A stretch of DNA of 64,000 nt from assembly GCA_043812915.1 (NCBI GenBank), contig JBDRLQ010000004.1, positions 949-64,948 on the forward strand. The letters are read 5' to 3'. The stretch comes from Candidatus Micrarchaeota archaeon (GTDB lineage Archaea; Micrarchaeota; Micrarchaeia; Anstonellales; Bilamarchaeaceae). Below, piece by piece: positions 8,912-64,000 of this stretch (positions within the stretch are counted from its first letter, which is position 1; every line of letters begins with the position of its first letter). A program made the translations under genes and the position numbers. The notes beneath the pieces were generated by a model that did not search any database, had not been told where the DNA came from, and saw only the letters and a list, made by a program, of their open reading frames with translations.

Positions 8912-9013
8912 TTAACACCATGACGACTAATGTCGAAACATCTGCCGTCTTTCTGCAACCTTTATTAATCTTACCTTCTTCTTTAGAGAGCAATATTTCC
9001 CAATTGAGGTGAT

Positions 9014-9418: not shown

Positions 9419-9433
9419 TTTTTTCTTTTTCCC

Positions 9434-9901: not shown

Positions 9902-10187
9902 CTAGTCACCCTTCAGGTAATGGGAAATTTTGTTGTTTATATTCATTTTCGGTGGCAGAATGTCTCCATCAACAGTCCCCTTAAAAAGGCGCTGTCGATA
10001 ACAACTTTCCGGGCTATTGAAGGAAACTCCCTCTCCCCTCCCCGTCAGGAAACCGTTTATAAACATTTCTTTTCATACTTCTCCTTTACTTATTAATTCC
10101 GGCGCGGTGGGTTCGTACCCACACCACGAGGGCGCAAGCTCTTGTCGGTCCCAATGTATCCAACCGGGGAGGGATTCTCTCTCTGTG

Positions 10188-10195
10188 TTATATTA
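10188..10195 (+). promoter_or_regulatory. TATA-box-like element upstream of the L3 operon
   Basis: TTATATTA lies about 90 nt upstream of the rpl3 ATG, in an otherwise GC-richer spacer. Confidence 0.35.
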
Positions 10196-10284
10196 GCGCT
10201 TCCAACGAGGTGTCAACCTCTGGAGAAACGCTATTGGAACCGTTTCGGTTCCCAATGGGCTCCGCGATAAGCAGGTGCGATAAG

Positions 10285-35676: not shown

Positions 35677-37973
35677 TTCCTTCTGCTTTTAGTTAAGTCA
35701 ACCAAATGCCTTTTTGCAGTCTTAATCAGCATGGTTTCGAAGAGCTTCATGAAAGTCTCCATGGCCCCGCCGTATCTCTTTAATCCGAATCTTCTGATGA
35801 GAGCAACTACCTCGTAGGGGTCGTGGTTTGAAGGGACCTGCTTCAGAATCTCCACTAAATCAAGCCCGATTGCCCCCTTTGTCTTTGCAACGAATTCAGC
35901 CACTACAGAGTCGGCAACTTCGGGCACGAAGATATTGTTCCCTCGCACCTGCCCGTTCTTTGCCCTCTCCGCTTCAAATAGCGTGACTATGGAAGTTGCA
36001 CCCTCGCCATATACGAGCTCTGCGATGAGCTTCGCCTCGGCATATGGGTCTTTGGGCCTTCCCCTCCCTTCGAGCTCTTGAAGGATGTCCGGATGCCCCT
36101 CAAGCATGCTCCTTGAGAATTCCTCAATCATCGGATTCGCCGGAGCTTCCCTTGCTCCGAGGTTCCTCTGCAAGAGCGGATTCCTGCTCCTCCCAAGCCC
36201 GCCTGCCCTGTGCGCGAAGTTTGAAACCCTCGACAAAAGAATCCTGACCGCGGGCGCCACTTGGGAGATTGATTTTCTTGTAACGAGTATAAGGTTCCCA
36301 TCCCTCTTGGCGTCACCGCCATAAAGGACCGGAAGGAGATTCGGCATCTGGATTGAGTGAATGGCCTCATCAATGTCATCGCCAACATCTGCTGCTGTTT
36401 CGCTCCGGACTGGGCATGCGATGAACAGGGGCCTGATAGTTCCTGTCGACACGCTCTTTAGGTCCTGCTCGATTTCCTTTGCCCTTTCGCTCAGGCGCCG
36501 CACATCCTCCATCATCCTCTCCCTGCTAAGGTACCTGAAGATGGCTCCGGATGAGCCTAGCCTGACAAATCCTCTGTTGTTGCCTGGCGCGCTGAGGAAT
36601 AAGTATACGAATCCGTTGACTGCCTTGTGGTCGCAGAGGAGCCGGAGGGCTCGCAGCCGTACAACCCCAATCTGCCCCGAGACCATCCACTTGCCCCTTT
36701 CATGGGCCCTGTTGATGAATATCCTCTGCATATCGCCCCCAATCTCATAGACATGCTTGACGACAAGGAGGTATCTGTCTTTTACCGGACTCATCCCATA
36801 GGAGAGCGCAGCCTCGGTCTCATGGAACTGCTGCTCTTTCTCCCGGGTAAGCGATGAGAGCGCTTCCCCCCATCCGTTCCCTCCATTCTCAATCGGTATG
36901 TGGAATGAGGCGGATTCGATCCCTTCCCTGCATTCCCTTATTGCCCCCTTTAGGGCATTTGCAATCTCCTGCGGCGCCTTCCCCCTGATTCCAACGAAGG
37001 ATGAGTGCTCCCTTACCGAGAAGAAGTTCTCCATCAGGTGGCTTGCCGTTGTATCATCAATTTTGCTCCCATCCGGGAACCTGAATGTCTTGAGGAATCC
37101 CCTAACCCTCGAGAGCATCGTTTTCTCTGCCTCGTACATGACCGGCCCGAGGGCCTTTGCCCCGAAGCTGACCGTAATCAGCTCGCCGCTTCCCCTGCTT
37201 CCGACCATGGAGGCCGCAAGATAAGCGTCATCGCTCCCCCAGAGAGTCTTGCGCAGCTCATCAGTGAATTCCTTGTAGAAATAAGCGAGCTTCAAGTCCC
37301 CCATCTTCCTTCCCCCAAGATAGTTGACCTCGTCCATGCAGCCGCAGTCGAAGAGCGTTATGTATACCTCCTCAGGCAGGCCATGCTCCATCTCAGTTCC
37401 AAGCACATTGCCAAGAATCTGGCAGCAGTTGTCCAGGGACTGGGAGGCGAGGGCGACCTTTATTGTGGAGCTCAGTATATTCAGGCTGTATGGCGCCTTT
37501 CCGTAAGGGATTTCAATCTCCTCGTTGTCCAGCAGCCTGCTGCAGTCAACATCGTTCCCCCTCAGCAGGGAATCGAGCATGAGCAGGGAGCCCTCCGTGG
37601 TTGTGTGCTCCAGCACCCCGTCCACGATAAGCGGCAGGATGTCCGGGTGGACTTCGATTTCATGGTCTGCCATGAACTGGCTGAAAAGGTTGTAATAGTA
37701 GTAGAAATTGCCTTTGAGCTCCCCTTCCAGGGCTGCCTGCTCTACAGTGAGCGCCTCCACGGTGAGCTTCTGCCCGGTCAGCTCCTCGAACTGCTTGGCC
37801 AGCGGGCTCTCCTGCGGCTTCCTGCTCTTTAGCGCCGCCCACATCTTGTCCAGGAGCTCCCTGCGCCTTTGCTTGGATTCCTTTATGGCGCGTATCCTAT
37901 CGAAGCCGGGGCTCTCCTTTACCGTGAATGCGAGCTTGAGCCGGTTGCCGTTGTCATTTGCCATGGGAAGCAC
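35673..37973 (-). CDS. large hypothetical cytosolic protein (766 aa)
   Basis: Uninterrupted 2.3-kb ORF with a TATA box ~35 nt upstream of the ATG. No signal peptide, TM helix or motif recognised. Confidence 0.6.
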   Translation of the reverse strand: MLPMANDNGNRLKLAFTVKESPGFDRIRAIKESKQRRRELLDKMWAALKSRKPQESPLAKQFEELTGQKLTVEALTVEQAALEGELKGNFYYYYNLFSQFMADHEIEVHPDILPLIVDGVLEHTTTEGSLLMLDSLLRGNDVDCSRLLDNEEIEIPYGKAPYSLNILSSTIKVALASQSLDNCCQILGNVLGTEMEHGLPEEVYITLFDCGCMDEVNYLGGRKMGDLKLAYFYKEFTDELRKTLWGSDDAYLAASMVGSRGSGELITVSFGAKALGPVMYEAEKTMLSRVRGFLKTFRFPDGSKIDDTTASHLMENFFSVREHSSFVGIRGKAPQEIANALKGAIRECREGIESASFHIPIENGGNGWGEALSSLTREKEQQFHETEAALSYGMSPVKDRYLLVVKHVYEIGGDMQRIFINRAHERGKWMVSGQIGVVRLRALRLLCDHKAVNGFVYLFLSAPGNNRGFVRLGSSGAIFRYLSRERMMEDVRRLSERAKEIEQDLKSVSTGTIRPLFIACPVRSETAADVGDDIDEAIHSIQMPNLLPVLYGGDAKRDGNLILVTRKSISQVAPAVRILLSRVSNFAHRAGGLGRSRNPLLQRNLGAREAPANPMIEEFSRSMLEGHPDILQELEGRGRPKDPYAEAKLIAELVYGEGATSIVTLFEAERAKNGQVRGNNIFVPEVADSVVAEFVAKTKGAIGLDLVEILKQVPSNHDPYEVVALIRRFGLKRYGGAMETFMKLFETMLIKTAKRHLVDLTKSRRN

Positions 37974-42058: not shown

Positions 42059-43594
42059 CTAAGAAAGCGATTTTGCCTTGGTCTTGATTGTCCAGTAGTT
42101 GGCGGCTTTTCCACCTGGGAATCGTTCATTCAGCCTGTCCGCCACAACATAGAAGCTCGGTCTCGGCTCAGCTTCAAGCAATTCCCTCATGAATGCCTCT
42201 TTCCTAGCGGTCCATCCGTATGAAGAGCCTTTGGTTGAATGCTGGAGGACTATCGGCTTTAGGTCCGGCTCCTGCTTTGCCAGGCGGCCGAGCCTGTTCC
42301 GGACTGTATTGATATCCGGCTTCACTTTTGTATCAAACCTCCGCTCGAGCATCCGCGCAATCAGGGCGTGCCCAAGCCCGGGCATCCTGTACATAAGGGT
42401 TATCAGGAATTCATCCTTCTCGTCATCCCAGGGATATCTGCTATTCTCCATTGCAATAGGCCTGAGCGCATCTGCCTCATCCGGCCTCGCTTTCAGAAGC
42501 TCCCGAAGCATCCTGCGGATTGTCTTATCATCAGCTTTCCTTGCGCCTGGAAACTTCTGATTCATCATCCTGGCAAGCTCCTGGCAGGTCCTGGACGGAT
42601 TCTCCTTTTTTATCGAAATCAGGTAATCTCTCCTGCCACCTGTCCAATCATATGCTGAGCGGGGCCTCTGCTCTCTTGGAAGATGCTTCTTCAGGAAATT
42701 ACGGACTGTCGATGGCCTTGCCTTAATTGCCTGGCCCTCATCGAATTGGCCATTAAGCCTTTTTGCTATCTCCATGGAACTTTTGCCCTCCCTGGCAAGG
42801 GACAGGGCGAATTCTCCCTTCGCATCATCCCACAGATACCTCTGGCTCAGCTTCCTCCTTTTCGGAGCCTTTTTGCCTTCCCTCTCCATCCTCTGGAAAA
42901 GCGTGTCAACCATGTTCGCTGTGGCGCGCGGCTCCCCTGGAAAAACGTCATTGACGGCCTCCGCAACCTCTCTGTAGGTAAAGCCTTCCTCCCTGAGCCT
43001 TAGCGCAAGGTCTTCCCTTCCTGGGGCGGACCAGTCATATTCGAATCTCAACTCTGGATGCTCTCCTGAAAGGTGCTGGATTTTCCTCCTGACCTTTTCC
43101 GGGGTTATATCCGAGGCGCTTGCAAACTTCGTGCTTAGGGACAGTGCCAGCCTCCAGCAGTTCCAGTTCGGGTTCCTGCGCCGCTGGGAAATAAGGTAGT
43201 CGGTTTCACCATCCGTCCAGTTATGCTGTTTCCCTTTGCCCAATTCTCTGGCAATTGCCCTTGCCCGCGCCAGCACGGCCTCAAATTCCCGGTTGATGTC
43301 GCTCTGAAGAAATCTATCCCATTCATTTTTTCGAGGGACGATCTGAGCCACTTTATCCGCGATGTCCTCCGCGGCAGCCCGGCCGGCAGGGTATGCCCCA
43401 TTCAGAATCCTGGCCAGGCCGGCAAAATCCGCAGGGTCATGGCCATCTTTCAGCATTTCGCTGAGCAGGGCCAGCCTGTTGGGGCTCCAGGCATATGGTT
43501 CCCCGTTCTTCCTGCGCCCTGGGGGCGTTGCGGCAGCTTCCCTGGCTACTGCTGAAGAATGCGCTAAAACTCTCCCTCTCTGACTTGCACTCAT
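42059..43594 (-). CDS. protein built of about seven Myb/SANT-like helix-turn-helix repeats
   Basis: Repeating ~65-aa units: (Y/N)xW(T/S/D)...(L/F)(I/A)(S/L)... then ...(L/M)Nxx(F/Y)... then T(V/I)RN(F/R)L. Examples: YDWTGGRRDYLISIKKENPSRTCQELARMMNQKF and YPWDDEKDEFLITLMYRMPGLGHALIARMLERRF. Confidence 0.6.
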   Translation of the reverse strand: MSASQRGRVLAHSSAVAREAAATPPGRRKNGEPYAWSPNRLALLSEMLKDGHDPADFAGLARILNGAYPAGRAAAEDIADKVAQIVPRKNEWDRFLQSDINREFEAVLARARAIARELGKGKQHNWTDGETDYLISQRRRNPNWNCWRLALSLSTKFASASDITPEKVRRKIQHLSGEHPELRFEYDWSAPGREDLALRLREEGFTYREVAEAVNDVFPGEPRATANMVDTLFQRMEREGKKAPKRRKLSQRYLWDDAKGEFALSLAREGKSSMEIAKRLNGQFDEGQAIKARPSTVRNFLKKHLPREQRPRSAYDWTGGRRDYLISIKKENPSRTCQELARMMNQKFPGARKADDKTIRRMLRELLKARPDEADALRPIAMENSRYPWDDEKDEFLITLMYRMPGLGHALIARMLERRFDTKVKPDINTVRNRLGRLAKQEPDLKPIVLQHSTKGSSYGWTARKEAFMRELLEAEPRPSFYVVADRLNERFPGGKAANYWTIKTKAKSLS

Positions 43595-43654
43595 ATTTTG
43601 TAATTATTATACACAATAAGTTAAAATACCTTAAGGACTGCCCGCTTCCAGCAG

Positions 43655-45178
43655 TCATTCCCCAAAAATCAGGCGCTCTTTCCGTTCCAGGAAGTCTAGC
43701 AGCCATTGCGCATCTTCCCCTTCCCCCTGCTCCAGATTTCCTCTCAACACTGAAAGCACGTGCCTTGCGGTTGCCACATATTCCTGCGGATTAACTTCAA
43801 TCTCCCGGCTGCTGCTGAAACAGAAGCTGAGGTTGAGGGGATTGGAATTGGTCACCAGCATGGCGCGGCTCGCGGAAGTATCAGGTATGCCAAGAACATT
43901 GATTGGGTCCACTCTGTCCGGGCCGACAAACTCAAGGCTAACAACTCCTGAGGCACTCCTGCGCATTGTCAGCCTGAAGATGGAAGAACCGCTAAAGCCC
44001 CGGATGCGGTTGATGAATTCTTGGCGCGCCGAAGCCCCGCGCCCCACACCGCGCCTGGTGCTTATCTCCAGCGTCCGGTTCCCGTCCTCTTCCCGATACC
44101 GAGCGGTTGTCCATCCAGCTTCGTTAACCCATTGAATTCCGTTGTCAATCGAAGTTTCTTCCCATCTTGGATGGCGGTAGCTGGTGCTATGTTCTGAAAG
44201 GGCGAATTCACTGAAAGGAGACATGTCAAAGGAACCCGGATATTCCCTCTCAACGCCTGCAAGGCTGCGCATTATCTCATCTTCCCTATCGAAACCTTCA
44301 TCTATCCTCCCTATATTTGCCCGCACCCTCGCCAAGACTTCTGAGTGCCTGTGCCCATGGACATAATACCACATTTCCCCGAATGATTGGAAACCGGTTC
44401 CCATAAGCGCGCTAACTGAAATATTTCCCAGGGTGGTATCCCTTGCAGAGCTTGCCTGCCTGGAAACAAGTTCCCTGAATGCGTCTTCTGCAACTGCAGG
44501 ATCACCAGTCCGCACCAGGGCGTTGTGGATAAGGCTGATTCCAATCCTCGCATCATAGTGCCTGGCGATATGCTCCCCAAGATACATCACGAATGCCTCC
44601 GCCTCAATCTCATTGGCCCATTTGTCATTGGCGTTGTGCCCAAGGTATCCGTCGAAGGAATGGCCCTGCTCATGGGCCCATACCTCCAGCCTAGAATTCG
44701 CCTCGATAATTGAGCCTGGCATAACCCTGCAGTGGTCCCTGTATCTGATGCCTGCTTGCTGGCTTATCCCCTCCCGGAACATTCCCTCCCCGATGAATAT
44801 GTCCCTTGGCCCGGGCCGGAAGCATCCTCCTGCCTCATTACTGCATATTGCCCGAAGCTCCTCGTCTGAAACAAGGCTCACCCGCTCACTTGGTATCGGC
44901 TCGCGCCCAGAAATCTCACGGGCAATCGGCTCCCATATCCTGAAATCCGACGCCTCGATGATGTTCGCCGCCCGGAACCAGTCGTTCTCCTCGGATACTG
45001 TTCTTCGCACTTCCACAGGATCTGGCGCCGCCCTGGTCCCTCTGGGGGTGCCCGCGCAGGCGGGGAGCAGCAATAGCCCTGCCGCTAACGGAGCGACAAT
45101 CCTTCTGGCAACTTTCCCGACCTTCTCCCGCCTGGCTTCCTTCTTCAGGCAGGTGGAAACAAGCTTCCTATTTTTCAT
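43655..45178 (-). CDS. putative HExxH zinc-metallopeptidase lipoprotein (paralog of 29187..30713)
   Basis: Lipobox LLLLPACAG. HEQGH encoded at 44660-44674 (WAHEQGHSFDGYLG). Collinear similarity with the first copy over the full length. Confidence 0.6.
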   Translation of the reverse strand: MKNRKLVSTCLKKEARREKVGKVARRIVAPLAAGLLLLPACAGTPRGTRAAPDPVEVRRTVSEENDWFRAANIIEASDFRIWEPIAREISGREPIPSERVSLVSDEELRAICSNEAGGCFRPGPRDIFIGEGMFREGISQQAGIRYRDHCRVMPGSIIEANSRLEVWAHEQGHSFDGYLGHNANDKWANEIEAEAFVMYLGEHIARHYDARIGISLIHNALVRTGDPAVAEDAFRELVSRQASSARDTTLGNISVSALMGTGFQSFGEMWYYVHGHRHSEVLARVRANIGRIDEGFDREDEIMRSLAGVEREYPGSFDMSPFSEFALSEHSTSYRHPRWEETSIDNGIQWVNEAGWTTARYREEDGNRTLEISTRRGVGRGASARQEFINRIRGFSGSSIFRLTMRRSASGVVSLEFVGPDRVDPINVLGIPDTSASRAMLVTNSNPLNLSFCFSSSREIEVNPQEYVATARHVLSVLRGNLEQGEGEDAQWLLDFLERKERLIFGE

Positions 45179-47925: not shown

Positions 47926-49674
47926 ATGGCCAGAAGCAAGCTCCCCCCCAGACGGAGGACCATAGAAGCCCCTGACGGGCCTTACTCCCAGTACCCCGGG
48001 CAGCTTGCGAGGGGAATGAAAAAGATTTTCGGCACTATGGAGCAGTTCCCCGGAGGCGCTCAGGCTGTGCCCCACGCCAAGAGGCTTGTTGACAGGCTTA
48101 TCCATTATAACATTCTCGAGCCTGATAAGATAGGCGACAGGAAGGCAGACCCAAAATCCCTCAACCTCAAGCTGGGCTATCTTGCGGCAATGCACAGCTT
48201 CAAGGAATCCGCGGTTTCCAAGGGAATCCTCCCACCATCCATTTTCTCCAAGCACAAGCACGTCGTAGACGGGCATGATGTCCTCTGCGCCCTCCGTGAC
48301 AATGACCTTGGAACCCAGAGCAGCGCAATAACTTCAGCCCTTCTTGAGAATCCGTCGCTTGGTCTCCTAGTCTGGATGGCCGACCTCACACAGTGCTATG
48401 AGGCAGAAGCAGGAATAGCGAAGAAGGAGCTTGGCAACCTCGATCCGCACGTGTTCCACACCCATGGTGTAGGCGAGGGCAGCATGGAATACCGGAAGCT
48501 TGCAAGGCAGGCATTAAACGTCTATTCACAGCTTGCCGATGCCCTCGATTACCGTGAGCTTTCAGGAGACCTCATGAAGATGGCATATTTCCACCTCAAC
48601 AGGGAGCTCCACGACTATGTCGAGCAGGCCTTCGAGCTAACCACGTTCATGGCTGACAATACCCTCGCAGTATATCAGAAAGCAAAGCCGATAATCGAGG
48701 AGGAGCTTCGTCGCCTGGGCTATGATGTGGAATTCCACGTGAGGGAAGACAAGAACCTCGGAAAGGCGATGGGCAAGGTCGAGAAGAAGCTCCGCGAGAA
48801 AGGCATGTGCGCAACGCCGGGCGCCGTTCTCGATGAGGTTATGGACCTCAATGACCGGGTCGCATTTACCATTGAAGTCAAGAAGTATGATGGCAAGACT
48901 GTCGGGCAGAAGGACATGGAGCGCTTCGACGAAGTTCTTCTTGTGGCAATGACTGCCATAAACAGCATAACAGAGCTCAGGGACGTCGACCCGGAAAAGC
49001 TCATAATGGGCATCTTGGACAAGGAGGCGCTCATGAGGAAGCGCATTGGAAAGGACGGTTCTCTTGAAGAAGGCCTCTACAGGGATTACATATCAAGCCC
49101 GAAGCCTAACGGCTACCAGTCCCTCCACGGGGATATGAGGTTCGTTGATGCAGACAACTTTGCCAACCTTGAAATCCACGTAGAGAACAGCACGATGCAT
49201 GGGAACTCCAAGACCGGAAGCGCGGCCCACGCACTCTACAAAGGGGGAGGCCCGCTTGCAAGAAGGGCACAGAGGAACTACAGGAATGTCCTCGAGGCGA
49301 TAGCGCGCGGCGGAAATGGCAATGGCTCTGCAGGCGTAATCCGGACGATAAATGTCCAGGTCGTCGAAATAAACGGCAAATGCAAGACCAAGGAAGTCGT
49401 GCTCCCTGAGCACGCCTCGGTCGCTGACGCGCTCGCGGAGGCTGACATAGATGACTTCCTAAACGGGCTCGCGCTTACGCCGCCCCTCAGGCTCACCGAC
49501 AAGCTCGGGGATGTCAGAAAGCTTGAGGTTAGGCACAGCGAAGGCAGCGGCCACCTTGTAGGCGCGATGTTCGATGTGGCGTCAGCGGCCACAGAAGCTG
49601 GGCAGAGAGCCCTCAAGAAGGCGAGGCAGGCTGTCCCGGGCCTCTTCCAAAAGCGCAACGGCAACTGCAAGTAG
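47926..49674 (+). CDS. RelA/SpoT-homologue (RSH): (p)ppGpp-synthetase-like domain plus TGS-like C-terminus
   Basis: DYISSPKPNGYQSLHGDMRF and LEIHVENSTMHGNSKTGSAAHALYKGG match RSH synthetase motifs (PKxNGYQSLHT; EvQIRT..MH..AE.G.AAHW.YK). A TGS-like LPEHASVADALAE...LGDVRKLEV is present. No clear HD signature in the N-terminal ~270 aa. Confidence 0.7.
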   Translation: MARSKLPPRRRTIEAPDGPYSQYPGQLARGMKKIFGTMEQFPGGAQAVPHAKRLVDRLIHYNILEPDKIGDRKADPKSLNLKLGYLAAMHSFKESAVSKGILPPSIFSKHKHVVDGHDVLCALRDNDLGTQSSAITSALLENPSLGLLVWMADLTQCYEAEAGIAKKELGNLDPHVFHTHGVGEGSMEYRKLARQALNVYSQLADALDYRELSGDLMKMAYFHLNRELHDYVEQAFELTTFMADNTLAVYQKAKPIIEEELRRLGYDVEFHVREDKNLGKAMGKVEKKLREKGMCATPGAVLDEVMDLNDRVAFTIEVKKYDGKTVGQKDMERFDEVLLVAMTAINSITELRDVDPEKLIMGILDKEALMRKRIGKDGSLEEGLYRDYISSPKPNGYQSLHGDMRFVDADNFANLEIHVENSTMHGNSKTGSAAHALYKGGGPLARRAQRNYRNVLEAIARGGNGNGSAGVIRTINVQVVEINGKCKTKEVVLPEHASVADALAEADIDDFLNGLALTPPLRLTDKLGDVRKLEVRHSEGSGHLVGAMFDVASAATEAGQRALKKARQAVPGLFQKRNGNCK

Positions 49675-49677: not shown

Positions 49678-50139
49678 TTAGACCTGCGAGAACTCGCTCA
49701 TTTTTTTCATTACATTGAGGACAACGCTTGTATTCGTCTTGTCCACGCCCGGAATCCCGAGTATGCCCTTGACCAGGGCCGAGAATTCCTGGCGGCTCTT
49801 GCACATCACGATGGCGATTGAGTCGTACTGGCCAGTCGTGTCATATACCGCGGCGACTCCCTGGAGCTTCGCAATCTTCTCCTGCACCTTGAGGATGTCC
49901 CCGGATATGCTTATCTGGAGTACTGCCATGAAATCGAATCCGAGGGCAAGGTAGTCAAAATTCGCTGAGTAGCCGGCAATTATTCCTCCCTTCTCCAGGC
50001 GGTTCATCCTCTCTATGAGCGCAGCCGGGCTCATCCCCACACTCGCAGCTATCTCCCGGTATGAACGCCTGCAGTTTCGTCTGAGTTCCAGAAGGATCTG
50101 CCTGTCTGTCGAATCTAGCCCCAAATGTTTGGTTTTCAT
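49678..50139 (-). CDS. lrp: Lrp/AsnC family transcriptional regulator
   Basis: LDSTDRQILLELRRNCRRSYREIAASVGMSPAALIERMNRLEKGGII HTH plus a RAM domain. Divergent from glnA. Confidence 0.88.
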   Translation of the reverse strand: MKTKHLGLDSTDRQILLELRRNCRRSYREIAASVGMSPAALIERMNRLEKGGIIAGYSANFDYLALGFDFMAVLQISISGDILKVQEKIAKLQGVAAVYDTTGQYDSIAIVMCKSRQEFSALVKGILGIPGVDKTNTSVVLNVMKKMSEFSQV

Positions 50140-50275
50140 TCATTTTCACCATCATAAGCTAAACATTTGTAAGCAATATTTATATAAATATCGAATTTTT
50201 GTTTTGGAAAATAAGGATAAACAATATAAAAAGGTCGAAACCAAGCTATCCAAAGAACAAATGGAAGGCGGTACC

Positions 50276-51604
50276 ATGGAAAAAGAAGAAATTTTCGAAA
50301 GGATAGAAAAGGACAAGGTGAGATTCGTGAGCCTACAGTTCACGGACATATTCGGAATCGTGAAATCGATTACCATCCCGGCAAAGCACCTTGGCGACTC
50401 GCTGACGCACGGGACCTGGTTCGATGGCTCCTCGGTCGAGGGCTTTGCCAGGATACACGAGAGCGACATGTACCTGAAGCCGGATCAGGATACTTATGCC
50501 CTACTGCCATGGCACAATTCCAATGACGGCAACACCGCCCGCTTCATATGCGACGTGCACAAGCCGGACGGAGCTCCCTTCGGGGGAGATCCCCGGGCAA
50601 TCCTCAAGAAGGCGATGGCAGAGGCGAAGGCGATGGGTTTCGAGTACAATGTCGGGCCCGAGCTGGAATTCTTCCTTTTCAGGAGGGAAAATGGGAAGCT
50701 TCTGCCTCTTCCCCATGACAATGGGAATTACTTCGATTTGACAACTGACCAGGCATATGAAATTAGGAGGGACATGAGCACCGCCCTGGAGCAGTTCGGA
50801 ATCAATGTGGAGGCGAGCCATCACGAGGTCGCGCTTGGCCAGCATGAGATTGACTTCCGATATGCGGACGCGCTTTCCACTGCGGACTCCGGGACTACCA
50901 TGCGATTCGTGCTGAAAGCGGTTGCGCAGCAGCACGGGCTGCACGCAACGTTCATGCCCAAGCCCATAACCGGCATAAACGGCTCCGGCATGCATGTCCA
51001 CCAGAGCCTTTTCAAAGATGGCAAGAACGTGTTTTACGACGGGTCGGACAGGTACAGGCTCTCAAATACCGCATATAGCTTCATCGCCGGGCAGCTGGCC
51101 CACGCCAAAGGGATGTCAGCCATACTCTCGCCAACGGTCAACTCCTACAAGCGGCTTGTCCCTGGATATGAGGCGCCAGCCTACATAAGCTGGGCGGGCG
51201 TTAACCGCTCGGCACTAATCAGGATACCCAGGTATTCCGAAGGCAGAACCAGTTCCACAAGGTGCGAGCTCCGCTGCCCGGACCCCAGCTGCAACCTCTA
51301 TCTTGCCTTCGCCGTGATGCTGAAGACCGGCCTTGAAGGGATAAAAAGCGGGCTCGAGCCTCCTGAGCCGGTGGAGGAGGACCTATACCATTTCGACGAC
51401 CGGAAGCTGAAGGAGAGGAAGATAGATATGCTGCCATACTCGCTGTGGCAGGCCCTGTGCGCGCTCAGGGAGGATAAGGTGGTGCAGGAAGCCCTGGGGA
51501 CCCATACTTATGAGAGATATCTGGCAGCCAAAACGAAGGAATGGGATTCCTACCGGCTGCAGGTCACACCCTGGGAAATCGAGAATTACCTGGAGAAGTA
51601 TTAG
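50276..51604 (+). CDS. glnA: glutamine synthetase, type I
   Basis: VRFVSLQFTDIFG beta-grasp N-terminus and the NGSGMHVHQS ATP-binding region. The ATG is at 50276; 50261 is an alternative. The ORF-track start at 50015 overlaps lrp and is unlikely. Confidence 0.93.
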   Translation: MEKEEIFERIEKDKVRFVSLQFTDIFGIVKSITIPAKHLGDSLTHGTWFDGSSVEGFARIHESDMYLKPDQDTYALLPWHNSNDGNTARFICDVHKPDGAPFGGDPRAILKKAMAEAKAMGFEYNVGPELEFFLFRRENGKLLPLPHDNGNYFDLTTDQAYEIRRDMSTALEQFGINVEASHHEVALGQHEIDFRYADALSTADSGTTMRFVLKAVAQQHGLHATFMPKPITGINGSGMHVHQSLFKDGKNVFYDGSDRYRLSNTAYSFIAGQLAHAKGMSAILSPTVNSYKRLVPGYEAPAYISWAGVNRSALIRIPRYSEGRTSSTRCELRCPDPSCNLYLAFAVMLKTGLEGIKSGLEPPEPVEEDLYHFDDRKLKERKIDMLPYSLWQALCALREDKVVQEALGTHTYERYLAAKTKEWDSYRLQVTPWEIENYLEKY

Positions 51605-56686: not shown

Positions 56687-57109
56687 ATGCTCATGATAGT
56701 CATTGATTGCAAAAACCTGATTTTCGGAAGAGTCGCAAGCCATGCGGCAAAGCAGGCCCTCAACGGTGAGGAAGTCCACCTCATAAATGCAGAGCAGATG
56801 GTGGTGTGCGGCAATCCTACACAGATTTCTGATAGATACAAACAGAAGAGGAGGCTGCAGAACAAGGGTACTCCGGAGCACTCGCCCAGATGGCCGAGGG
56901 TTCCCCACATGCTCGTCAAGAGGATGGTGAGGGGTATGCTCCCGAGGAAGACCATGAGAGGCAGGGAAGCCATGAAGAGGCTGATGGTATATGCCGGAAA
57001 CCCAAAGAACCTTGAGGGAAACGCGAAGCTTGCGAAGGCTGAGTATGATGGCGTGACCAAGCACATAACCATTCTGGGGTTGTGCAAGAGCCTTGGATAC
57101 ACAGGTTGA
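56687..57109 (+). CDS. rpl13: 50S ribosomal protein L13 (uL13)
   Basis: VIDCKNLIFGRVASHAAKQALNGEEVHLINAE is a uL13 N-terminus. Possible starts: GTG 56684, ATG 56687, ATG 56693. Confidence 0.92.
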   Translation: MLMIVIDCKNLIFGRVASHAAKQALNGEEVHLINAEQMVVCGNPTQISDRYKQKRRLQNKGTPEHSPRWPRVPHMLVKRMVRGMLPRKTMRGREAMKRLMVYAGNPKNLEGNAKLAKAEYDGVTKHITILGLCKSLGYTG

Positions 57110-57756
57110 TGTTTATGACAGAAAAAGAGAAGAAAGCGGAAAAAGAGGCCCCTGAAGAGAAAACGAAGAAGGCCGCAAAGAAGAAGACTACCAAGGCAGC
57201 CAAGAAAAAGGAGACAATCCAAGAGCCGAAGAAGGAAGAGAAATCGGTTCCTGAGGGGCCTTCCCCCGAGCAACCTAATCCCTTAACTCCCGAGCCCGTG
57301 GAGGCGATGCCTGAAAAAAAATCCTCAAAGAAGAAAAAGAGAGCCAAAAAGAAGGCACCTAAGGTCTTTGTGGTAAGAGGAAAAAGGAAGGAGAGCGTTG
57401 CCAGGGCAACAATAAAAGCCGGGAGGGGCATTGTACGGATTAACAGCATATCCCTTTCTGCAATGAACAACAAGTACGTCCGGGAAATAATACGCGAGCC
57501 GCTCAGGTATGTAGGGCCCGAAGTGGACACTGTGGACATTTCCGTAAACGTCTATGGCGGGGGTCTTATGGGCCAGGCGCAGGCGTCAAGGACTGCCATT
57601 GCCAAGGCTCTGGCCATGTACTTCGAGGAGCTCAAGCTTAAAGAGAAATTCATCTCCATAGACAGGTCCCTCATGATTGAGGACACGAGACGTGTGGAGA
57701 GCAAGAAAGACTGCGGACCGAAGGCAAGAGCCAGATATCAGAAATCGTACCGGTGA
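57109..57756 (+). CDS. rps9: 30S ribosomal protein S9 (uS9) with an ~85-aa K/E/P-rich N-terminal extension
   Basis: The ATG overlaps the rpl13 TGA. The core begins at ...VVRGKRKESVARATIKAGRG and ends ...KARARYQKSYR. The N-terminus is lysine-rich low complexity. Confidence 0.92.
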   Translation: MFMTEKEKKAEKEAPEEKTKKAAKKKTTKAAKKKETIQEPKKEEKSVPEGPSPEQPNPLTPEPVEAMPEKKSSKKKKRAKKKAPKVFVVRGKRKESVARATIKAGRGIVRINSISLSAMNNKYVREIIREPLRYVGPEVDTVDISVNVYGGGLMGQAQASRTAIAKALAMYFEELKLKEKFISIDRSLMIEDTRRVESKKDCGPKARARYQKSYR

Positions 57757-58526: not shown

Positions 58527-59432
58527 ATGGCAGAAGAAGAAACTGAAAAAGTGGATGAAGAGAAGAGTGGCATGCCTGTCAAGCAGGAAATGTTCCTTGA
58601 GGCGGGTATGCATATAGGTACGAAGATTCGTACGAATGATATGAGGGATTTCGTCTTCAAGAGAAGGGATGACGGGCTGTTCATTCTGGACCTTCGGAAG
58701 AGCGCTGAGCGGCTCATGTCGGCAGCGAAGATGATCTCCCAGTTCAGGCCAGAGGATGTGCTTGTAGTCGCATCGCGTGTGTACTCAAGCAACCCTGCAA
58801 CCAAGTTCTCACAGCTGACTTCCATACCCCTTGTCAAGGGGAGGTTTGTCCCAGGCACCATGACCAACATGATGTGCGCGAGCTTCAAGGAGCCCAAGCT
58901 TGTCATGGTCTGCGATCCGAAGGGGGAGAGGGAAGCAATCCTCGAGAGCGCCAAGAACGGCGTTCCTGTAATCGCGCTCTGCGACACTGACAACGAGACA
59001 AAGTTCATCGACCTGATTGTGCCCATCAACAACAAGGGCAAGCGCTCGCTGGCACTGACCTTCTACATCCTTGCCAGGGAGCTTATGCTTTCCCAGGGCA
59101 AGATAAAGGACTACTCAGAATTCCCATTCGAGGTCCACCACTTCGAGCAGCCGCCTCCTGAAAAGAAGGAGGAGGCGAAGGCTGAGGAAGCTGTTGAAGC
59201 CGCAAAGGAAGAGGCAGCAAAAGAGGAAGCCGAGAAGGAAGAAAAGGCCGCAAAGGACAAGGAAGAGGAGAAGAAGGCCGAGGAAGCCCTCAAGGTGGCC
59301 AAGGACGAGAAGGAGTCCAAGGAGAAGCCGAAGAAAGAAGAGAAGCCGGAAAAGAAGGCCGAAGAGAAGAAAGAGGCCGCAAAGGAAGGGAAGCTGGCAA
59401 AAGAAGACGCTTCAGAAGAGAAAAAGGAGTAA
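58527..59432 (+). CDS. rps2: 30S ribosomal protein S2 (uS2) with a ~95-aa E/K/A-rich C-terminal extension
   Basis: The uS2 core (LEAGMHIGTK...VCDPKGEREAILESAKNGVPVIALCDTDN) is followed from PPPEKKEE to the stop by a low-complexity tail. Confidence 0.92.
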   Translation: MAEEETEKVDEEKSGMPVKQEMFLEAGMHIGTKIRTNDMRDFVFKRRDDGLFILDLRKSAERLMSAAKMISQFRPEDVLVVASRVYSSNPATKFSQLTSIPLVKGRFVPGTMTNMMCASFKEPKLVMVCDPKGEREAILESAKNGVPVIALCDTDNETKFIDLIVPINNKGKRSLALTFYILARELMLSQGKIKDYSEFPFEVHHFEQPPPEKKEEAKAEEAVEAAKEEAAKEEAEKEEKAAKDKEEEKKAEEALKVAKDEKESKEKPKKEEKPEKKAEEKKEAAKEGKLAKEDASEEKKE

Positions 59433-59456: not shown

Positions 59457-61328
59457 TTACCAGTCGCAGATATTTTCATCCCGCGGATCCATTGGATTGT
59501 CAACATCGAACTCCCTGAATGTGCTCTGGATTCCACCGCCTTCTGTTTTATGGCAGATATTTCTCAGTTTCGAGATTCTCATTCTCCGCTCCATTACGCT
59601 TGGCAACTTCTGGATTTCTCCGATTGCAAGCCTTTTCCTGAATCTCCTCTCAGCCGCGTATCTCATGCTCATCTCTATATTGCCTCCATATCTTGAGAGC
59701 CGGGAAATCTCTGCAAAGAGCTCGAGCTCCTCCTGGGTGAGCTCCTCAATGCTCCGCACTTGTTTTTCGGGAGGGCTGCCAACCTCGAATATCTCCCTGC
59801 TTGGAATGGCCTTTAGCATCCGGGAGAACTCCTCAGCGCTTATTTCTCCATCCTCATCCTCGTCGGCTGCCTGCCTTGCACCTGCGATGGCGCGCTCCAG
59901 CCTCAATCTCCGTTCCATCACGCTGGGAAGCCCCTGGAACTCTCCAGACAAATAGCTTTTCCTGAATCTTGCCTCAAGCTCCTCATGCCTCTCATGGCGG
60001 GAGACCTCAGTGAAATATTCGAGCTCTTCCTGGGTGAGATCCAGAATATCGCCGACATAGATGCCGCCCGGGTTTTCTGGGCGTGAGCCGTCTCTTCCAG
60101 GCAACATCCTCAGCATACGCACGAACTCCCCGGAGTCAACCCTGCCGTCGTTGTCCCTGTCTGCCATGTGAGTTGCCTCTGCAACCACCCTATCAAGCAT
60201 CTCATATTCCACCTGCTGGACAAGCTCCTGCCTCTGGAGCTCCAGGAACCGGTTCTGGCTCTCTATATAGTTCCTGTATAGAGAAACGCCATAGGCCATC
60301 GCTATTCCAAGCGCGACTGCCGCGACGAATTTCACCGCCCGCAAGGCCCTTCTCCTCCAGAGCTTGTCAACTGCCTTTTGGTCATAGTTGCCCTTTCCGG
60401 TATTCACTATGACGACCGTGTCGCTGGGCCCAAGGTCGAATTTCTCTGCACCGCAGAATGCAACCGCTGCGGATGGCTCGACAGCAATCCCGATTTTGTT
60501 GAGGTACTTGTATTCCTTTGCAATCTCTCTTTCGCTGATTGCATCTACCAGCTCCACCCTCCCGTTCTTGACTAAGTTGAGAAGCAATTCCTTGAATTTC
60601 GAATATCCATTGACAAGCTTGTCTGCAATGCTCTTTCCAGGCCTTTTGAGGAACTCCTCGGCCTTCACGATAGTGTTCTGGGCAATGGTGACTCCGACAA
60701 CCATCGGCGCTTCATCTCCCCAGATTTCATTCGCGCCTTCTGCAAGCTCGACTGCAAGCTCCCCTTCCCCGACAGGGCAGAATATGTAGTCAGGCTTAAC
60801 GCCCGTATCGAAAATCTCACGAACGATAGTACGGTAGCCGTTGGCAAGCCCGTAATCCTCAACGCCGACAATATTCTCTTCCGGACCATCAAAGCCAGTT
60901 GCTTTTCTGGCAATCTCCTTCATCTCATCCTGCGTGATTATCCGCTTTCCAAGGCCCAGCTCAACAACTATTGAGCAGCCCTCAAGGGCCTCCCGCACTT
61001 CCCTTGAAATCCCTTTGGGGACTATGTTGACCACCTGGATTTCCAATCCGGTTTCCTTTACTCTTTCCTTTGCCATATGCCCCAGGCTGAATCCTGAATT
61101 CCCCGAGGTGATATGGACAAACAGCAGGCCATCTGATTTCCCCCCGCATGCCCCGGCCTTCGCAGCTAGCTTCCTCATTTCCCTATCGAGAATTGCCGAG
61201 CACCGCCTGTCCTTGAATGTCTTGAAAGGATTCATGCTCTCGTGCTTGACCAGCACAGTAGCCCCGTTGCAGCGCCCGCACATCTCGATGCTCTTTTGCA
61301 GAGGTGTCATGCCAACTTTTAGCCTCAT
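59457..61328 (-). CDS. fold-type-II PLP-enzyme domain + TM helix + two EF-hand loops (623 aa)
   Basis: NPFKTFKDRR (PLP Lys), HITSGNSGFSLG, CPVGEGELA, VEPSAAVAF. TM helix AVKFVAAVALGIAMAYGV. EF-hand loops DRDNDGRVDSGE and DEDEDGEISAEE. An internally duplicated LTQEELE.F.E.SR...LPSVMERR.R module. Confidence 0.65.
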   Translation of the reverse strand: MRLKVGMTPLQKSIEMCGRCNGATVLVKHESMNPFKTFKDRRCSAILDREMRKLAAKAGACGGKSDGLLFVHITSGNSGFSLGHMAKERVKETGLEIQVVNIVPKGISREVREALEGCSIVVELGLGKRIITQDEMKEIARKATGFDGPEENIVGVEDYGLANGYRTIVREIFDTGVKPDYIFCPVGEGELAVELAEGANEIWGDEAPMVVGVTIAQNTIVKAEEFLKRPGKSIADKLVNGYSKFKELLLNLVKNGRVELVDAISEREIAKEYKYLNKIGIAVEPSAAVAFCGAEKFDLGPSDTVVIVNTGKGNYDQKAVDKLWRRRALRAVKFVAAVALGIAMAYGVSLYRNYIESQNRFLELQRQELVQQVEYEMLDRVVAEATHMADRDNDGRVDSGEFVRMLRMLPGRDGSRPENPGGIYVGDILDLTQEELEYFTEVSRHERHEELEARFRKSYLSGEFQGLPSVMERRLRLERAIAGARQAADEDEDGEISAEEFSRMLKAIPSREIFEVGSPPEKQVRSIEELTQEELELFAEISRLSRYGGNIEMSMRYAAERRFRKRLAIGEIQKLPSVMERRMRISKLRNICHKTEGGGIQSTFREFDVDNPMDPRDENICDW

Positions 61329-62920
61329 CTCGCATTCACCTCCCTTGCAGCAGATGCGACACTCCTACGCTTATCATATATGCCCTCGGCGATTCTCCTT
61401 AAGAGAACCGGCCTACCGAAACTGTCTGGGCTGGCACGGAATTCCCTGCGCATGTCATCTGCCCACATGATGCTGAACTGCCCCATGCCTGTTCTCTCCT
61501 GATTTGCCAAACGAACGTAGAAATTGAGTTCTGCCTCAGTAAAATCATCTAGGTGGAGGCGCCCCTCTGCATTCCCAGTCCTGCACCTTCCGGCCCTTCT
61601 CCCAGGAATCTTCCCGCAGATTCTAGCAATCTCATCTTCGTTCAGCCTGCCATTGCCGTTTCCATCGGCAATTTCCATTACCTGCGCCCGCAGTTTCTGC
61701 AGCCTGAACAATTCGGCGTCATTCGCATGCATCTTCGCGCTGATTGAAAGGGTATGGTTTTCAGCTTCAAGCATCAATCTGTCCCGCTTTATGCTCAAGT
61801 CATATGTGCGGATTCCGAGTATGGCAACAGTAGCAATAAATGCAACGGCGGCCCACCTGGCGCTCTTCCAGATGAATCTCCTCCACATCTTCCTGACCGC
61901 ATGCCGATCGTAAATCCCCTGCCCCGTATTCACTATGACAATTGGCTCATCAGGATTGAGATTGCACCTCTTTGCGCCTGCGAATGCTACTGCCGCTGAA
62001 GGCTCGAGAGCCATGAGTTCTGAAACATGCTCGTATTCCTTGGCAATCTCAAACTCATTGACGGTAATCATAATCATCTTTCTTTCCTTTACCAGGCTCT
62101 CAATAATCGCCTTGAATTTCGAATATGCAGTTACCAGCTTGTCGGCAATGCTCTCCTTGGGCTTCCTGACGAATGCCTTTTTTTGGACTATGGGGTTGCC
62201 GGGTATTGTGACCCCGATAATTTTCGGGTAGTAATCCCCCCAGATGGCCTCCTCCAGGCCAAATCCTGGTGCAGTGGAGCCGTATTCGAATCCCCAGGCC
62301 TCCCTGCCATCTGCCAGTTGCTCTTCCTTTGACCACACTTCCTCCACGCCGCGCGCAAGGTCGACTGCGAGTTCTCCCCCTCCCACAGGCACAAAAATAT
62401 GCCTGGGCTTGATGCCCTCCGCATGAATCTCGCGGATAATCTCCTCATACCCGTTTCCGAGCCCGGATGACTCCACAACGACAATATCACTGTCCGGGCC
62501 ATCGAATGCAGCGGCCGTTTTCGCTATGTCAATTAGTTCGTCCTCGCCAATCTGTTCCTTATCCAGATTCATCTCACGGACGATTGAGCACTTCCTGAGC
62601 CTCCTCTTTATGGGCGTTGCCAGCTTTTTTGAAACTATATTTACAACTGTTCTCTCCTTGCCGGTCTCCTCCTGCCAGTCGGCAGCAAGCTTCGCCAGGC
62701 TGTATCCTGAGTTTCCTGATGTTATATGGACAAAAAGCACCTTTTCCTTGGAGGCATGGGCTTCAAGCAAGGCAGCACACCTTCTGGCCTTTACTGTTCC
62801 GGACTGGTTCCTGCTCTCATCCTTTACAAAGACCCTGGCGCGCCCGTATCTTCCGCACAGCTCATGGCTTATTGCGCAGCGTGTCTTGCCTACAGCTAAC
62901 CTTCTCATGTACCCCGGCAT
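61325..62920 (-). CDS. fold-type-II PLP-enzyme domain + TM helix + one EF-hand loop (531 aa), paralog of the downstream gene
   Basis: VKDESRNQSGTVKARR (PLP Lys), HITSGNSGYSLA, VPVGGGELA, LEPSAAVAF. TM helix ARWAAVAFIATVAILGI. EF-hand loop DGNGNGRLNEDE. 4-nt ATGA overlap with the next gene. Confidence 0.65.
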   Translation of the reverse strand: MPGYMRRLAVGKTRCAISHELCGRYGRARVFVKDESRNQSGTVKARRCAALLEAHASKEKVLFVHITSGNSGYSLAKLAADWQEETGKERTVVNIVSKKLATPIKRRLRKCSIVREMNLDKEQIGEDELIDIAKTAAAFDGPDSDIVVVESSGLGNGYEEIIREIHAEGIKPRHIFVPVGGGELAVDLARGVEEVWSKEEQLADGREAWGFEYGSTAPGFGLEEAIWGDYYPKIIGVTIPGNPIVQKKAFVRKPKESIADKLVTAYSKFKAIIESLVKERKMIMITVNEFEIAKEYEHVSELMALEPSAAVAFAGAKRCNLNPDEPIVIVNTGQGIYDRHAVRKMWRRFIWKSARWAAVAFIATVAILGIRTYDLSIKRDRLMLEAENHTLSISAKMHANDAELFRLQKLRAQVMEIADGNGNGRLNEDEIARICGKIPGRRAGRCRTGNAEGRLHLDDFTEAELNFYVRLANQERTGMGQFSIMWADDMRREFRASPDSFGRPVLLRRIAEGIYDKRRSVASAAREVNAR

Positions 62921-63106
62921 AATATTGTATAATTGTCCTTAAAAATGTACCTTTATGGTAATATTTATGTAAAATTGTGAGAATCACCGCTCCAGAACGG
63001 CTCTATCGATATATACGTGTTCCAACCGATATAATAATGTGACAAAGAGTATTCGGGGCAGCTAGAGCGGGGGGATAAGCGCCCTGCAAGTTTATGGGTG
63101 TGCGAG

Positions 63107-64000
63107 ATGGATGTGCGAGAGATGCACCTCTACTCTGCGAAAGTGGGGGATGAGGACATAAAGAACTTCTTCAATCTGGTAGTGAAAGCCAAGTTTCCGA
63201 TACTGGGCTTCATATCATTCTCAGATATATTCTCGCCAAATGCCCTTGGCCTGGTCCTGAAGCGGAAGGAGAACACACTCAAGATTTTTGTCAAAGATAA
63301 GCCGTGCCTCAAAAATCTGTCAGCCTTGATATTCCCGTTCAGGATGTGCGAGGCAACTAGACTTGAAAGGTCGGCAGGCTCGTTCTTCCCGTTCCCGAAA
63401 TTCTATTTCATAGGAGGCGGGAGGCACGATGCCCTTGATTTCATCCTCAAGGCGGATATTGAGGAGATTTCAATCGGGATAACCAAAGTACTGGGAAGGT
63501 TCATCGGAATCGGCAGCGTCACGAATACAAATGGAAAGAAGGGCATTACGATAATCTTCAGCCCTCAGAAGTTCTTCAGGATTGACCTTGAGAAGAACCC
63601 TTCCATCTATGTTGAGCTCCTGGAGCCGTTGCCCAAGAAGATGCACATGAGCTCAAAATACCCGGTATTCGAGGAAACCGGGATGAGCCTCGGCACTGAC
63701 AACTACGACCCGCTCCAGCACAGCCTTATAGTCGGAACTTCGGGAGCCGGAAAGAGCAAGGGACTGTACATCCTGCTAAAAGCGATAGAGGCCAGGTTCA
63801 GGGACAACACCCGGACTGTCATAATAGATCCTCATGGCGAGTTCGCCCACATGATGCCGCACTCAGGAATCATCGACTTCATAAAGAACTATGTGGAGCC
63901 CCTGGATGTCGGGCAGGAGAAATCGCCGATGCTCACCCAATTGATAGCGCAGCTTATATCGTCAGCAATAGGCAAGGAGAATAAATATTCAGAGAGGGTG
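63107..64000 (+). CDS. HerA/VirB4-like (DUF87-type) P-loop ATPase, N-terminal part (3' end outside window)
   Basis: Not in the ORF track because it runs off the window. Frame is open from the TAA at 63077-63079, with ATG at 63107. Walker A HSLIVGTSGAGKSKG followed by VIIDPHGEF, as in HerA/VirB4-type ATPases. Confidence 0.7.
   Translation, partial: MDVREMHLYSAKVGDEDIKNFFNLVVKAKFPILGFISFSDIFSPNALGLVLKRKENTLKIFVKDKPCLKNLSALIFPFRMCEATRLERSAGSFFPFPKFYFIGGGRHDALDFILKADIEEISIGITKVLGRFIGIGSVTNTNGKKGITIIFSPQKFFRIDLEKNPSIYVELLEPLPKKMHMSSKYPVFEETGMSLGTDNYDPLQHSLIVGTSGAGKSKGLYILLKAIEARFRDNTRTVIIDPHGEFAHMMPHSGIIDFIKNYVEPLDVGQEKSPMLTQLIAQLISSAIGKENKYSERV

Follow-up and report, generated by a model that had tools for sequence, protein, structure and literature searches.

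Fold-type-II enzymes that depend on pyridoxal phosphate (PLP) are generally dimers, and the best-matching described enzymes for the proteins reported here, the threonine synthases, are soluble and carry neither a membrane helix nor an EF-hand. We know of no fold-type-II PLP enzyme in which a Ca2+-type module on the outside of the cell is linked to an enzyme on the inside. Micrarchaeota and other archaea of the DPANN group have tiny genomes and live off host cells; to our knowledge, little has been established about how they sense and exploit their hosts, and a function has yet to be assigned to most of the conserved genes that are specific to their lineages. Here, we describe two adjacent genes, A and B, on the minus strand of a 64,000-nucleotide (nt) stretch of DNA from a Candidatus Micrarchaeota archaeon (assembly GCA_043812915.1, contig JBDRLQ010000004.1, positions 949 to 64,948; hereafter the window), whose products combine a PLP domain, a predicted membrane helix and a tail with EF-hand or EF-hand-like loops. 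Our preferred reading, to which we give a probability of roughly 55%, is that A and B are co-transcribed paralogous subunits belonging to a Micrarchaeota-specific family of membrane-anchored fold-type-II PLP enzymes, in which a Ca2+-folded outer module would be coupled to a dimeric enzyme.

Both the PLP domain, which Pfam calls PALP, and the EF-hand are already known separately; what is new is their combination and the existence of a phylum-wide family that carries it. In searches of the full-text literature, neither this family nor any other fold-type-II PLP enzyme anchored in a membrane was found to be described, and the database names are generic and automatic: identical public proteins from metagenome-assembled genomes (MAGs) of Candidatus Micrarchaeota are listed as ‘pyridoxal-phosphate dependent enzyme’ (MFH2101117.1, MFH1393694.1) or ‘PLP-dependent lyase/thiolase’ (MFH1393695.1). 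The architecture is thus undescribed, as a preliminary description of this DNA, made from its letters, had proposed. That description had presented A and B as a pair; they prove to be one instance of a family found across the Micrarchaeota.

The enzyme domains of A and B

The two open reading frames (ORFs) overlap by 4 nt on the minus strand, sharing the ATGA at 61325-61328, and their proteins are 40% identical over 484 amino acids (aa; E 4e-107), which confirms both the overlap and the paralogy that had been suggested for them. In the NCBI annotation, B starts at its second Met and is 527 aa long. Its first ATG, at 62920, lies ~30 nt 3' of a conserved TATA-like box, an arrangement that fits a leaderless mRNA starting there. 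The ATGA overlap and the presence of a single upstream TATA box are best explained by co-transcription of the two genes.

Each protein begins with what appears to be a complete cofactor-binding unit. Pfam assigns PALP (PF00291, cut-off 35 bits) with 102.1 bits to A (E 4.6e-29) and with 81.3 bits to B (E 1e-22), and the domain was matched in 47 of the 47 family members tested. All motifs quoted in the preliminary description could be located at defined residues, with FKTFKDRR at 35-42 in A and TSGNSG, PVGGGEL and EPSAA at 67-72, 178-184 and 306-310 in B; the remaining positions are given in Table 1. The 47-sequence family alignment has 41 invariant columns, which include the Schiff-base lysine (K39 of A, K44 of B) and, in A numbering, T74/G76/N77/S78/G79, G187/G189/E190/L191 and E284/P285/S286. 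In sequence and profile alignments, K39 falls on the lysine of SFKDRG in the threonine synthase 2zsj, and the other signatures of fold type II are present as well, namely the Asn loop, the glycine-rich phosphate loop and a Ser/Thr near the ring nitrogen of the cofactor. An AlphaFold2 model of A computed with the family alignment as input (mean predicted local distance difference test score, pLDDT, 84.8) folds residues 1-311 into a two-domain alpha/beta structure with pLDDT mostly above 90, and Foldseek matches this domain to PDB entries with a probability of 1.0, a target-normalised template modelling score (TM) of 0.67-0.76 and 17-22% identity. As far as sequence comparison and, for A, modelling can show, A and B thus have a complete PLP-binding domain with the cofactor-site signature intact. 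The assignment to fold type II made earlier is borne out by the significant Pfam matches, by the alignment of the proposed lysine and by Foldseek.

The comparisons place the family less sharply within the superfamily. Foldseek returned near-equal matches to threonine synthase, threonine deaminase, serine dehydratase, serine and aspartate racemases and cysteine synthases (E ~1e-15 to 1e-14), with threonine synthase as the best (E 1.4e-15), and threonine synthase also came first in sequence searches of the PDB (phmmer E 3.6e-6; family profile E 4e-8). As an assignment, threonine synthase (EC 4.2.3.1) was rejected on two grounds. The NCBIfam equivalogs reach 19-41 bits against cut-offs of 167-421 (best PRK06450, 41 against 301; TIGR00260, 19.1 against 167.1), and the family has V-E-D-Y-G-L-x-N-G-Y-x-x-I where 2zsj has SVNPYRIEGQKT, which we take to be the substrate-phosphate motif of threonine synthase (N-P-x-R-[IL]-E-G-Q-K-T). 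CysK/CysM was likewise rejected, with 24-36 bits against cut-offs of 344-413 (PRK10717, 36.5 against 387; TIGR01136, 28.8 against 344), and the equivalogs for threonine dehydratase, OrtB and SbnA also stayed below their cut-offs. The family has invariant residues of its own to which no role is assigned, E157, Y165, E171, E190, D236, K237, Y242 and S243. Because the matches from NCBIfam, from PDB sequence and profile searches and from Foldseek are weak and near-equal, no subfamily is assigned; we conclude from these comparisons that the family forms a deep clade of its own among the fold-type-II enzymes, one that keeps the cofactor site intact and lies at a near-equal distance from the known subfamilies.

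Within this clade, B stands out by its divergence. It departs from the consensus at 15 of 104 highly conserved columns, more than any other member (A departs at 4), and four of its changes surround the lysine, turning NPFGTFKDRR into NQSGTVKARR. The next-best match to B is 40-45% identical, and no close ortholog was found. At the closest related locus in our survey, which covered one genome per GTDB species, the A ortholog (L001, 73% identical) is preceded by a 59-aa ORF (560-739) that overlaps it by 4 nt and is 78% identical to residues 5-53 of B and 51% to the N-terminus of A. We regard this ORF as evidence of a B ortholog reduced to an N-terminal remnant by a large in-frame deletion. Because the stub matches the N-terminus of B and still overlaps the A ortholog, the duplication is older than the split of the two lineages, and B was lost later in the sister lineage. 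The notion of A and B as a conserved pair therefore does not hold, and B may instead be a lineage-specific auxiliary subunit that is degenerating. Tandem arrangements do recur elsewhere. At locus L020, three membrane-anchored PLP paralogs (2224-3696, 5789-7447 and 7444-8901, the last two overlapping by 4 nt) flank the ATPase gene discussed below, and L033 has a tandem pair (7001-9085, 9161-11038) with ankyrin tails, no membrane helix and no adjacent ATPase. Since translationally coupled pairs recur in independent lineages of a normally dimeric enzyme class, this analogy suggests that the paralogs form heterodimers.

Membrane helix, tail and topology

In nearly all members of the family, the PLP domain is followed by a K/R-rich segment, one hydrophobic helix and a tail of 100-270 aa. 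On the Kyte-Doolittle scale (17-residue mean), a hydrophobic segment of at least 1.57 is present in 48 of 48 tailed members, starting ~10-25 residues past the NTGKG motif. The single hydrophobic helix after a K/R cluster that had been noticed in both proteins was recovered at residues 334-351 of A and 353/356-370 of B, where six Lys and Arg residues precede the helix and four follow it. The same asymmetry holds for the family: averaged over the 48 members, the 15 residues before the helix contain 5.4 K+R and 1.1 D+E (net +4.3), the 15 residues after it 3.1 and 2.6 (net +0.5). The number of tail Cys residues is even in 38 of the 48 and never zero. The translations begin with hydrophilic N-termini, and no N-terminal signal peptide or hydrophobic stretch was seen in them. 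Flanking charge and Cys parity support a topology in which the enzyme is cytoplasmic and the tail lies outside, disulfide-bonded, and they extend to the whole family the earlier proposal that the EF-hand region faces outward.

The converse arrangement deserves a brief word, as EF-hands are classically cytoplasmic and the ankyrin-tailed relatives are evidently soluble. The proteins would then be cytoplasmic enzymes regulated by intracellular Ca2+, which the EF-hands sense, and the helix would serve dimerisation or peripheral membrane association, or the orientation would be reversed. We consider this very improbable: essentially all tailed members have 17-26 uncharged residues with a hydropathy of ~1.6-2.5 at this position, the positive-inside asymmetry is strong, the Cys parity points the same way, and export of an N-terminal domain of 310-330 aa without a signal peptide is unlikely.

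Beyond the membrane, A carries two loops and B one that follow the canonical 12-residue EF-hand pattern, in which positions 1, 3, 5 and 12 provide the ligands, position 6 is Gly and position 8 is hydrophobic (A 390-401 and 489-500, B 419-430). For A, the description of these loops as textbook EF-hands stands, as Pfam scores two stretches with EF-hand_1 (43.2 bits, E 1.7e-11, cut-off 25.4) and also finds EF-hand_7 (33.9 bits, cut-off 30). For B it stands for the pattern and fails for Pfam, where EF-hand_1 gives 14.8 bits (E 0.02). Both loops of A are embedded in helix-loop-helix structure in the full-length model and in a model of the tail by itself (pLDDT 78.5), which upholds their identification. 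In the full-length model, one unbroken helix, residues 317-389, takes in the K/R stretch, the membrane segment and a stalk and ends directly at EF loop 1.

The internal duplication that had been reported for the longer paralog is real, as residues 378-470 of A are 43% identical to residues 477-578 (E 2e-15). Copy 1, which runs from the EF loop through an LPGR turn and an LTQEELEYF helix to LPSVMERRLR, is homologous to the single tail module of other family members; copy 2 looks like an insertion relative to the ~198-aa tails of the members P0003-P0008. The hairpin motif at the C-terminus of A is kept within A's sub-clade, in P0002-P0008 and in the L020 protein encoded at 5789-7447.

Across the aligned tails, the module consists of a helix, an EF-type loop, an I-P-G/D-R turn and a D-F/L-T/S-x-x-E-L-x-F/Y-Y helix that resembles the second half of a degenerate partner EF-hand, and in most lineages, B included, a Cys pair brackets the turn. 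In 16 aligned tails, the Glu at loop position 12 is invariant and the Asp at position 1 nearly so, and 26 of 48 members retain all four of the positions that supply side-chain ligands. Some members have ankyrin-repeat tails and no membrane helix. As for a pairing of EF-hands into a four-helix lobe, calmodulin and troponin C lead the Foldseek results for the tail-only model without reaching significance (E at least 0.8), and the partner site DxTxxELxFY is degenerate. Pfam finds the EF-hand as the sole known domain of the tail. A phmmer search with residues 325-623 of A against 1.84 billion representatives found, besides two members of the family, just two generic multi-EF-hand proteins (P0050, P0051), and a tail profile search, its reach limited by a word prefilter, gave three matches, all family members. 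Dockerin type I (PF00404) was considered and rejected (14.5 bits against 22.9, E 0.042), the loops of A being 99 residues apart rather than ~22.

A tail that evolves fast and is Cys-paired, on a PLP domain that is conserved, also invites a plainer explanation. The proteins could be constitutive metabolic lyases or synthases of the Ser/Thr/Cys type, anchored at the membrane, for instance beside amino-acid importers of this host-dependent archaeon. Their ectodomain would then be purely structural, a stalk or adhesion piece stabilised by Ca2+ and disulfides and touching the S-layer or the host, and no signal would cross the membrane. The mostly degenerate EF loop suits this explanation, structural stabilisation is a typical role of Cys pairs and of Ca2+ sites outside the cell, and the swap to ankyrin tails suggests that the C-terminus has a localisation or adaptor role. 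However, the unbroken helix from enzyme to EF-hand and the family-wide position of the tail module suggest more than a passive anchor, and no adhesion-type domain was found by Pfam on A or by Foldseek on the tail. We regard a structural ectodomain as a possible but tentative alternative.

Family distribution, gene neighbourhood and intergenic elements

Searches with A and B returned ~60 protein clusters, nearly all from Micrarchaeota, ‘ainarchaeum’ or Bilamarchaeaceae. The survey comprises 28 loci, 21 of which have titles of the Micrarchaeota lineage (Micrarchaeota, Micrarchaeia, ‘ainarchaeum’, Bilamarchaeaceae), and weaker relatives occur in Aenigmatarchaeota and Nanoarchaeia.

The most constant companion of the family is a HerA/FtsK/TrwB-like P-loop ATPase, the gene for which lies divergent to B and runs off the end of the window; its product shares 70% identity with the ATPase of L002, and the gene is present in full length at L002 5813-7726 and L020 3822-5642. 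The ATPase gene is adjacent and divergent to a PLP gene in ~15 Micrarchaeota loci. Beyond it, there is usually an array of Cys-rich paralogs and an HTH_10 regulator. The arrays consist of 2-6 proteins encoded convergently with the ATPase gene (L002 1195-5816, L004 2717-5873, L015 191-4847); their units of ~250 aa are sometimes fused to ~525 aa and contain C-x-x-C-like repeats such as CFEVD..C..S..FCHNCE...DCMFCFNAKN, and no match to them was found in Pfam, NCBIfam or PADLOC. In this genome, the equivalent region lies past the end of the window. A defence system was rejected as an explanation of the locus, as PADLOC gives generic HerA P-loop matches for the ATPase and none for A.

Such a neighbourhood raises the question of whether the PLP protein is the membrane partner of the ATPase in a Micrarchaeota-specific membrane machine, for example for uptake or transfer of DNA or another substrate at the contact with the host. 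The PLP protein would be the sole membrane-spanning component of the conserved cluster, since no membrane helix is predicted in the ATPase, the HTH_10 regulator or the Cys-rich paralogs. Across loci, identity amounts to 65-73% for the ATPase and to only 40-55% for the PLP proteins, and the ATPase resembles models of the TrwB/VirD4, VirB4, CedD and HerA type, the match being confined to the P-loop. Yet the genes are divergently transcribed rather than co-transcribed, the adjacency is absent in the ankyrin-tailed pair of L033 and in the relatives from Aenigmatarchaeota and Nanoarchaeia, and synteny within one phylum may be merely inherited. The association of the PLP gene with the ATPase is suggestive of a shared function and does not prove it; a joint machine in this form appears quite improbable to us.

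The intergenic elements speak to the same question. On the PLP side, the TATA-like box is 28-34 nt from the estimated start of the PLP gene in 11 of the 15 loci that contain it. On the ATPase side, an ATATAT box is separated by ~8 nt from an imperfect palindrome, CCGYT-N4-AGCGG, which at 62987-63001 is present as a single copy in the 64 kb (0.08 expected by chance); the element of box and palindrome also occurs in L001, L002, L004, L005, L008, L010, L011, L013-L015, L017 and L020-L022. The palindrome keeps a fixed spacing to the TATA box on the side of the ATPase and not to the PLP promoter, a further point against a joint machine. In most loci, the element lies ~46-50 nt from the start codon of the ATPase gene. 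It resembles an operator placed directly 5' of the promoter of this gene, and the HTH_10 regulator of the cluster may be what binds it.

On its other side, A adjoins an archaeal ribosomal-protein cluster. A foreign origin of the locus was rejected, the local G+C content of 0.50-0.53 equalling that of the rest of the window. Rfam and tRNA scans for RNA elements found a single tRNA-Lys, distant from the locus, and nothing else. Two nearby plus-strand ORFs have low-complexity extensions rich in Lys, Glu and Ala: one of ~100 aa at the C-terminus of the ORF at 58527-59432, whose 310-aa L001 counterpart matches Pfam Ribosomal_S2, and one of ~95 aa at the N-terminus of the ORF at 57082-57756, whose 209-aa L001 counterpart matches Ribosomal_S9. 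Further away, 47926-49674 (+) encodes a 582-aa protein with a RelA/SpoT nucleotidyltransferase region (PF04607, E 8.4e-9), which is unusual for an archaeal genome, and adjoins a glutamine synthetase gene (50015-51604). At 42059-45178 (-), a 511-aa protein with a transposase-type HTH_32/Tc3 domain is encoded beside a 507-aa protein without a Pfam match, and the large ORFs at 26532-28643, 29187-30713 and 35673-37973 are also without a Pfam match.

Table 1. Position of the features of the A/B locus within the window
Feature	Position	Strand	Basis or remark
Gene A, 623 aa: PLP domain, membrane helix, duplicated EF-hand tail	59457..61328	-	ORF; second of pair
A PALP domain, residues 3-311	60396..61322	-	Pfam, alignment, AlphaFold2, Foldseek
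A Schiff-base lysine K39	61212-61214	-	
A TSGNSG loop, residues 74-79	61092-61109	-	
A PVGEGEL phosphate loop, residues 185-191	60756-60776	-	
A EPSAA, residues 284-288	60465-60479	-	
A predicted membrane helix, residues 334-351, FVAAVALGIAMAYGVSLY, preceded by KLWRRRALRAVK	60276..60329	-	Hydropathy 2.09, charge bias
A tail module copy 1, residues 378-470	59919..60197	-	Internal repeat
A EF-hand loop 1, DRDNDGRVDSGE, residues 390-401	60126..60161	-	Pfam EF-hand_1/6/7; helices 317-389, 399-408
A tail module copy 2, residues 477-578	59595..59900	-	Internal repeat
A EF-hand loop 2, DEDEDGEISAEE, residues 489-500	59829..59864	-	Pfam EF-hand_5/8; helices 470-490, 498-507
A C-terminal beta-hairpin with Cys pair (ICHK ... 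FREFDVDNPMDP ... ICDW)	59460..59561	-	AlphaFold2 strands 590-594, 600-604
Gene B, 531 aa: PLP domain, membrane helix, EF-like tail	61325..62920	-	ORF; first of pair
B PALP domain, residues 8-333	61922..62899	-	Pfam
B lysine in GTVKARR, residues 41-47	62780-62800	-	
B insertion of 31-37 aa in PALP domain, residues 196-232	62225-62335	-	
B predicted membrane helix, residues 356-370, WAAVAFIATVAILGI	61811..61855	-	Hydropathy 1.93
B EF-hand-like loop, DGNGNGRLNEDE, residues 419-430	61631..61666	-	Pattern; aligns with A loop 1
B family Cys pair, ICGKIPGRRAGRC	61583-61621	-	After EF-like loop
B FTEAELNFY	61508-61543	-	After Cys pair
TATA/BRE (B recognition element)-like box ACATTTTTAAGG, family consensus AAACATTTAWAAAC	62937..62948	-	~30 nt upstream of B start
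ATATAT box, ~8 nt, imperfect palindrome CCGYT-N4-AGCGG	62987-63016		B/ATPase intergenic
HerA/FtsK/TrwB-like P-loop ATPase gene, 5' part, runs off window	63107..64000	+	Pfam DUF87, TrwB_AAD_bind

A working model and its relation to known systems

How, then, might the parts of A and B act together? In our preferred reading of a membrane-anchored enzyme with a Ca2+-folded outer module, the enzyme domain would lie against the membrane from the cytoplasmic side and the tail would be outside the cell, and the proteins would be dimeric, as A2 or, where a tandem paralog exists, as A/B heterodimers. A continuous helix of ~70 residues, which starts where the PLP domain ends, crosses the membrane and becomes the entering helix of the first EF-hand, would couple the outside module rigidly to the enzyme. 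Extracellular Ca2+, which is abundant, may fold or pair the otherwise unpaired EF-hand modules, which could in turn determine the geometry in which the cytoplasmic enzyme dimerises, its stability or its location. The chemistry would most likely be a beta-elimination or beta-replacement on a small amino acid of the Ser/Thr/Cys type, or on an O-phospho amino acid, obtained from the host.

Several findings weigh against this reading and keep our confidence in it limited. The topology has hydropathy, charge bias and Cys parity as its only basis. The phosphate loop G-E-G-E-L, with its two Glu residues, is atypical in the superfamily, and the substrate class is not assignable, the NCBIfam equivalog scores being ~10-fold below their cut-offs. 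In the models of A, the pLDDT of the tail drops to 38-65 in the second module, and the tail-only model has no Foldseek match at E <0.001 (best E 0.8, with calmodulin and troponin C leading). Above all, a canonical EF-hand is found in a minority of the family, by Pfam in 4 of 47 members and by the full pattern in 10 of 48. Because the loops of most relatives are degenerate, Ca2+ is probably not what defines the function of the family, and control by Ca2+ is probably inessential to its core; more likely, Ca2+ is a lineage-specific refinement, structural or regulatory.

A bolder extension of the model, which we offer as speculation and rate as unlikely, is that host-dependent DPANN archaea possess, in this family, a novel kind of enzyme that spans the membrane once. 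It could be of a receptor type, in which extracellular Ca2+ or contact with the host, relayed through the stalk helix, switches a cytoplasmic amino-acid lyase or synthase. Alternatively, it could act as a lyase on lipids scavenged from the host and remodel their phosphoserine-type head groups, an idea prompted by the predicted position of the domain at the inner face of the membrane and its likeness to enzymes of O-phospho amino acids, among which are threonine synthase and the O-phosphoserine sulfhydrylases within the cysteine synthase family. In either form, the protein might work jointly with the neighbouring HerA/FtsK-like ATPase. The family is phylum-wide and genomically tied to a highly conserved ATPase cluster, and its PLP active site, which is intact judging by the conserved residues, offers a biochemical handle. 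An understanding of the family could uncover a new way in which enzymes are controlled across a membrane, or a step by which nutrients or lipids derived from the host are processed.

Finally, we would like to set the family beside the systems it resembles. Among the enzymes, its best sequence matches in the PDB are the short class I-type threonine synthases of Aquifex aeolicus (2zsj) and Thermus thermophilus (1uin/1v7c), which align with it end to end and share xFKDRx at the lysine, a GN-containing loop, the PVGxxGx phosphate loop, EPxSA and TGxG; the identity, however, is just 19-22%. The N-terminal 80 residues match CysM, of the O-acetylserine/O-phosphoserine sulfhydrylases, nearly as well (E 1.3e-7), and the TSGNSG loop has the T-S-G-N-x-G form typical of CysK, but CysK and CysM are soluble and without a tail, whereas the members of this family are tailed. 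By fold, the Ser/Thr dehydratases and racemases (TdcB 2gn0; the human and rat serine dehydratases, SDH, 4h27/1p5j/1pwh; serine racemase 3l6b/1v71) equal threonine synthase, with a TM of 0.69-0.76 at 17-21% identity, and a subfamily-specific motif in common was not identified. The divalent cations of serine racemase are held at an intradomain site and not by an EF-hand. The loops of A follow the same 12-residue, helix-flanked pattern as those of calmodulin, troponin C and the regulatory domains of calcium-dependent protein kinases (CDPKs). Canonical EF-hands, however, come in adjacent pairs, whereas the loops of A are 99 residues apart, one in each repeated module. Unlike calmodulin and troponin C, the EF module of this family is predicted to be extracellular and tethered to a membrane helix, with a degenerate putative partner site (D-F/L-T-x-x-E-L-x-F-Y).

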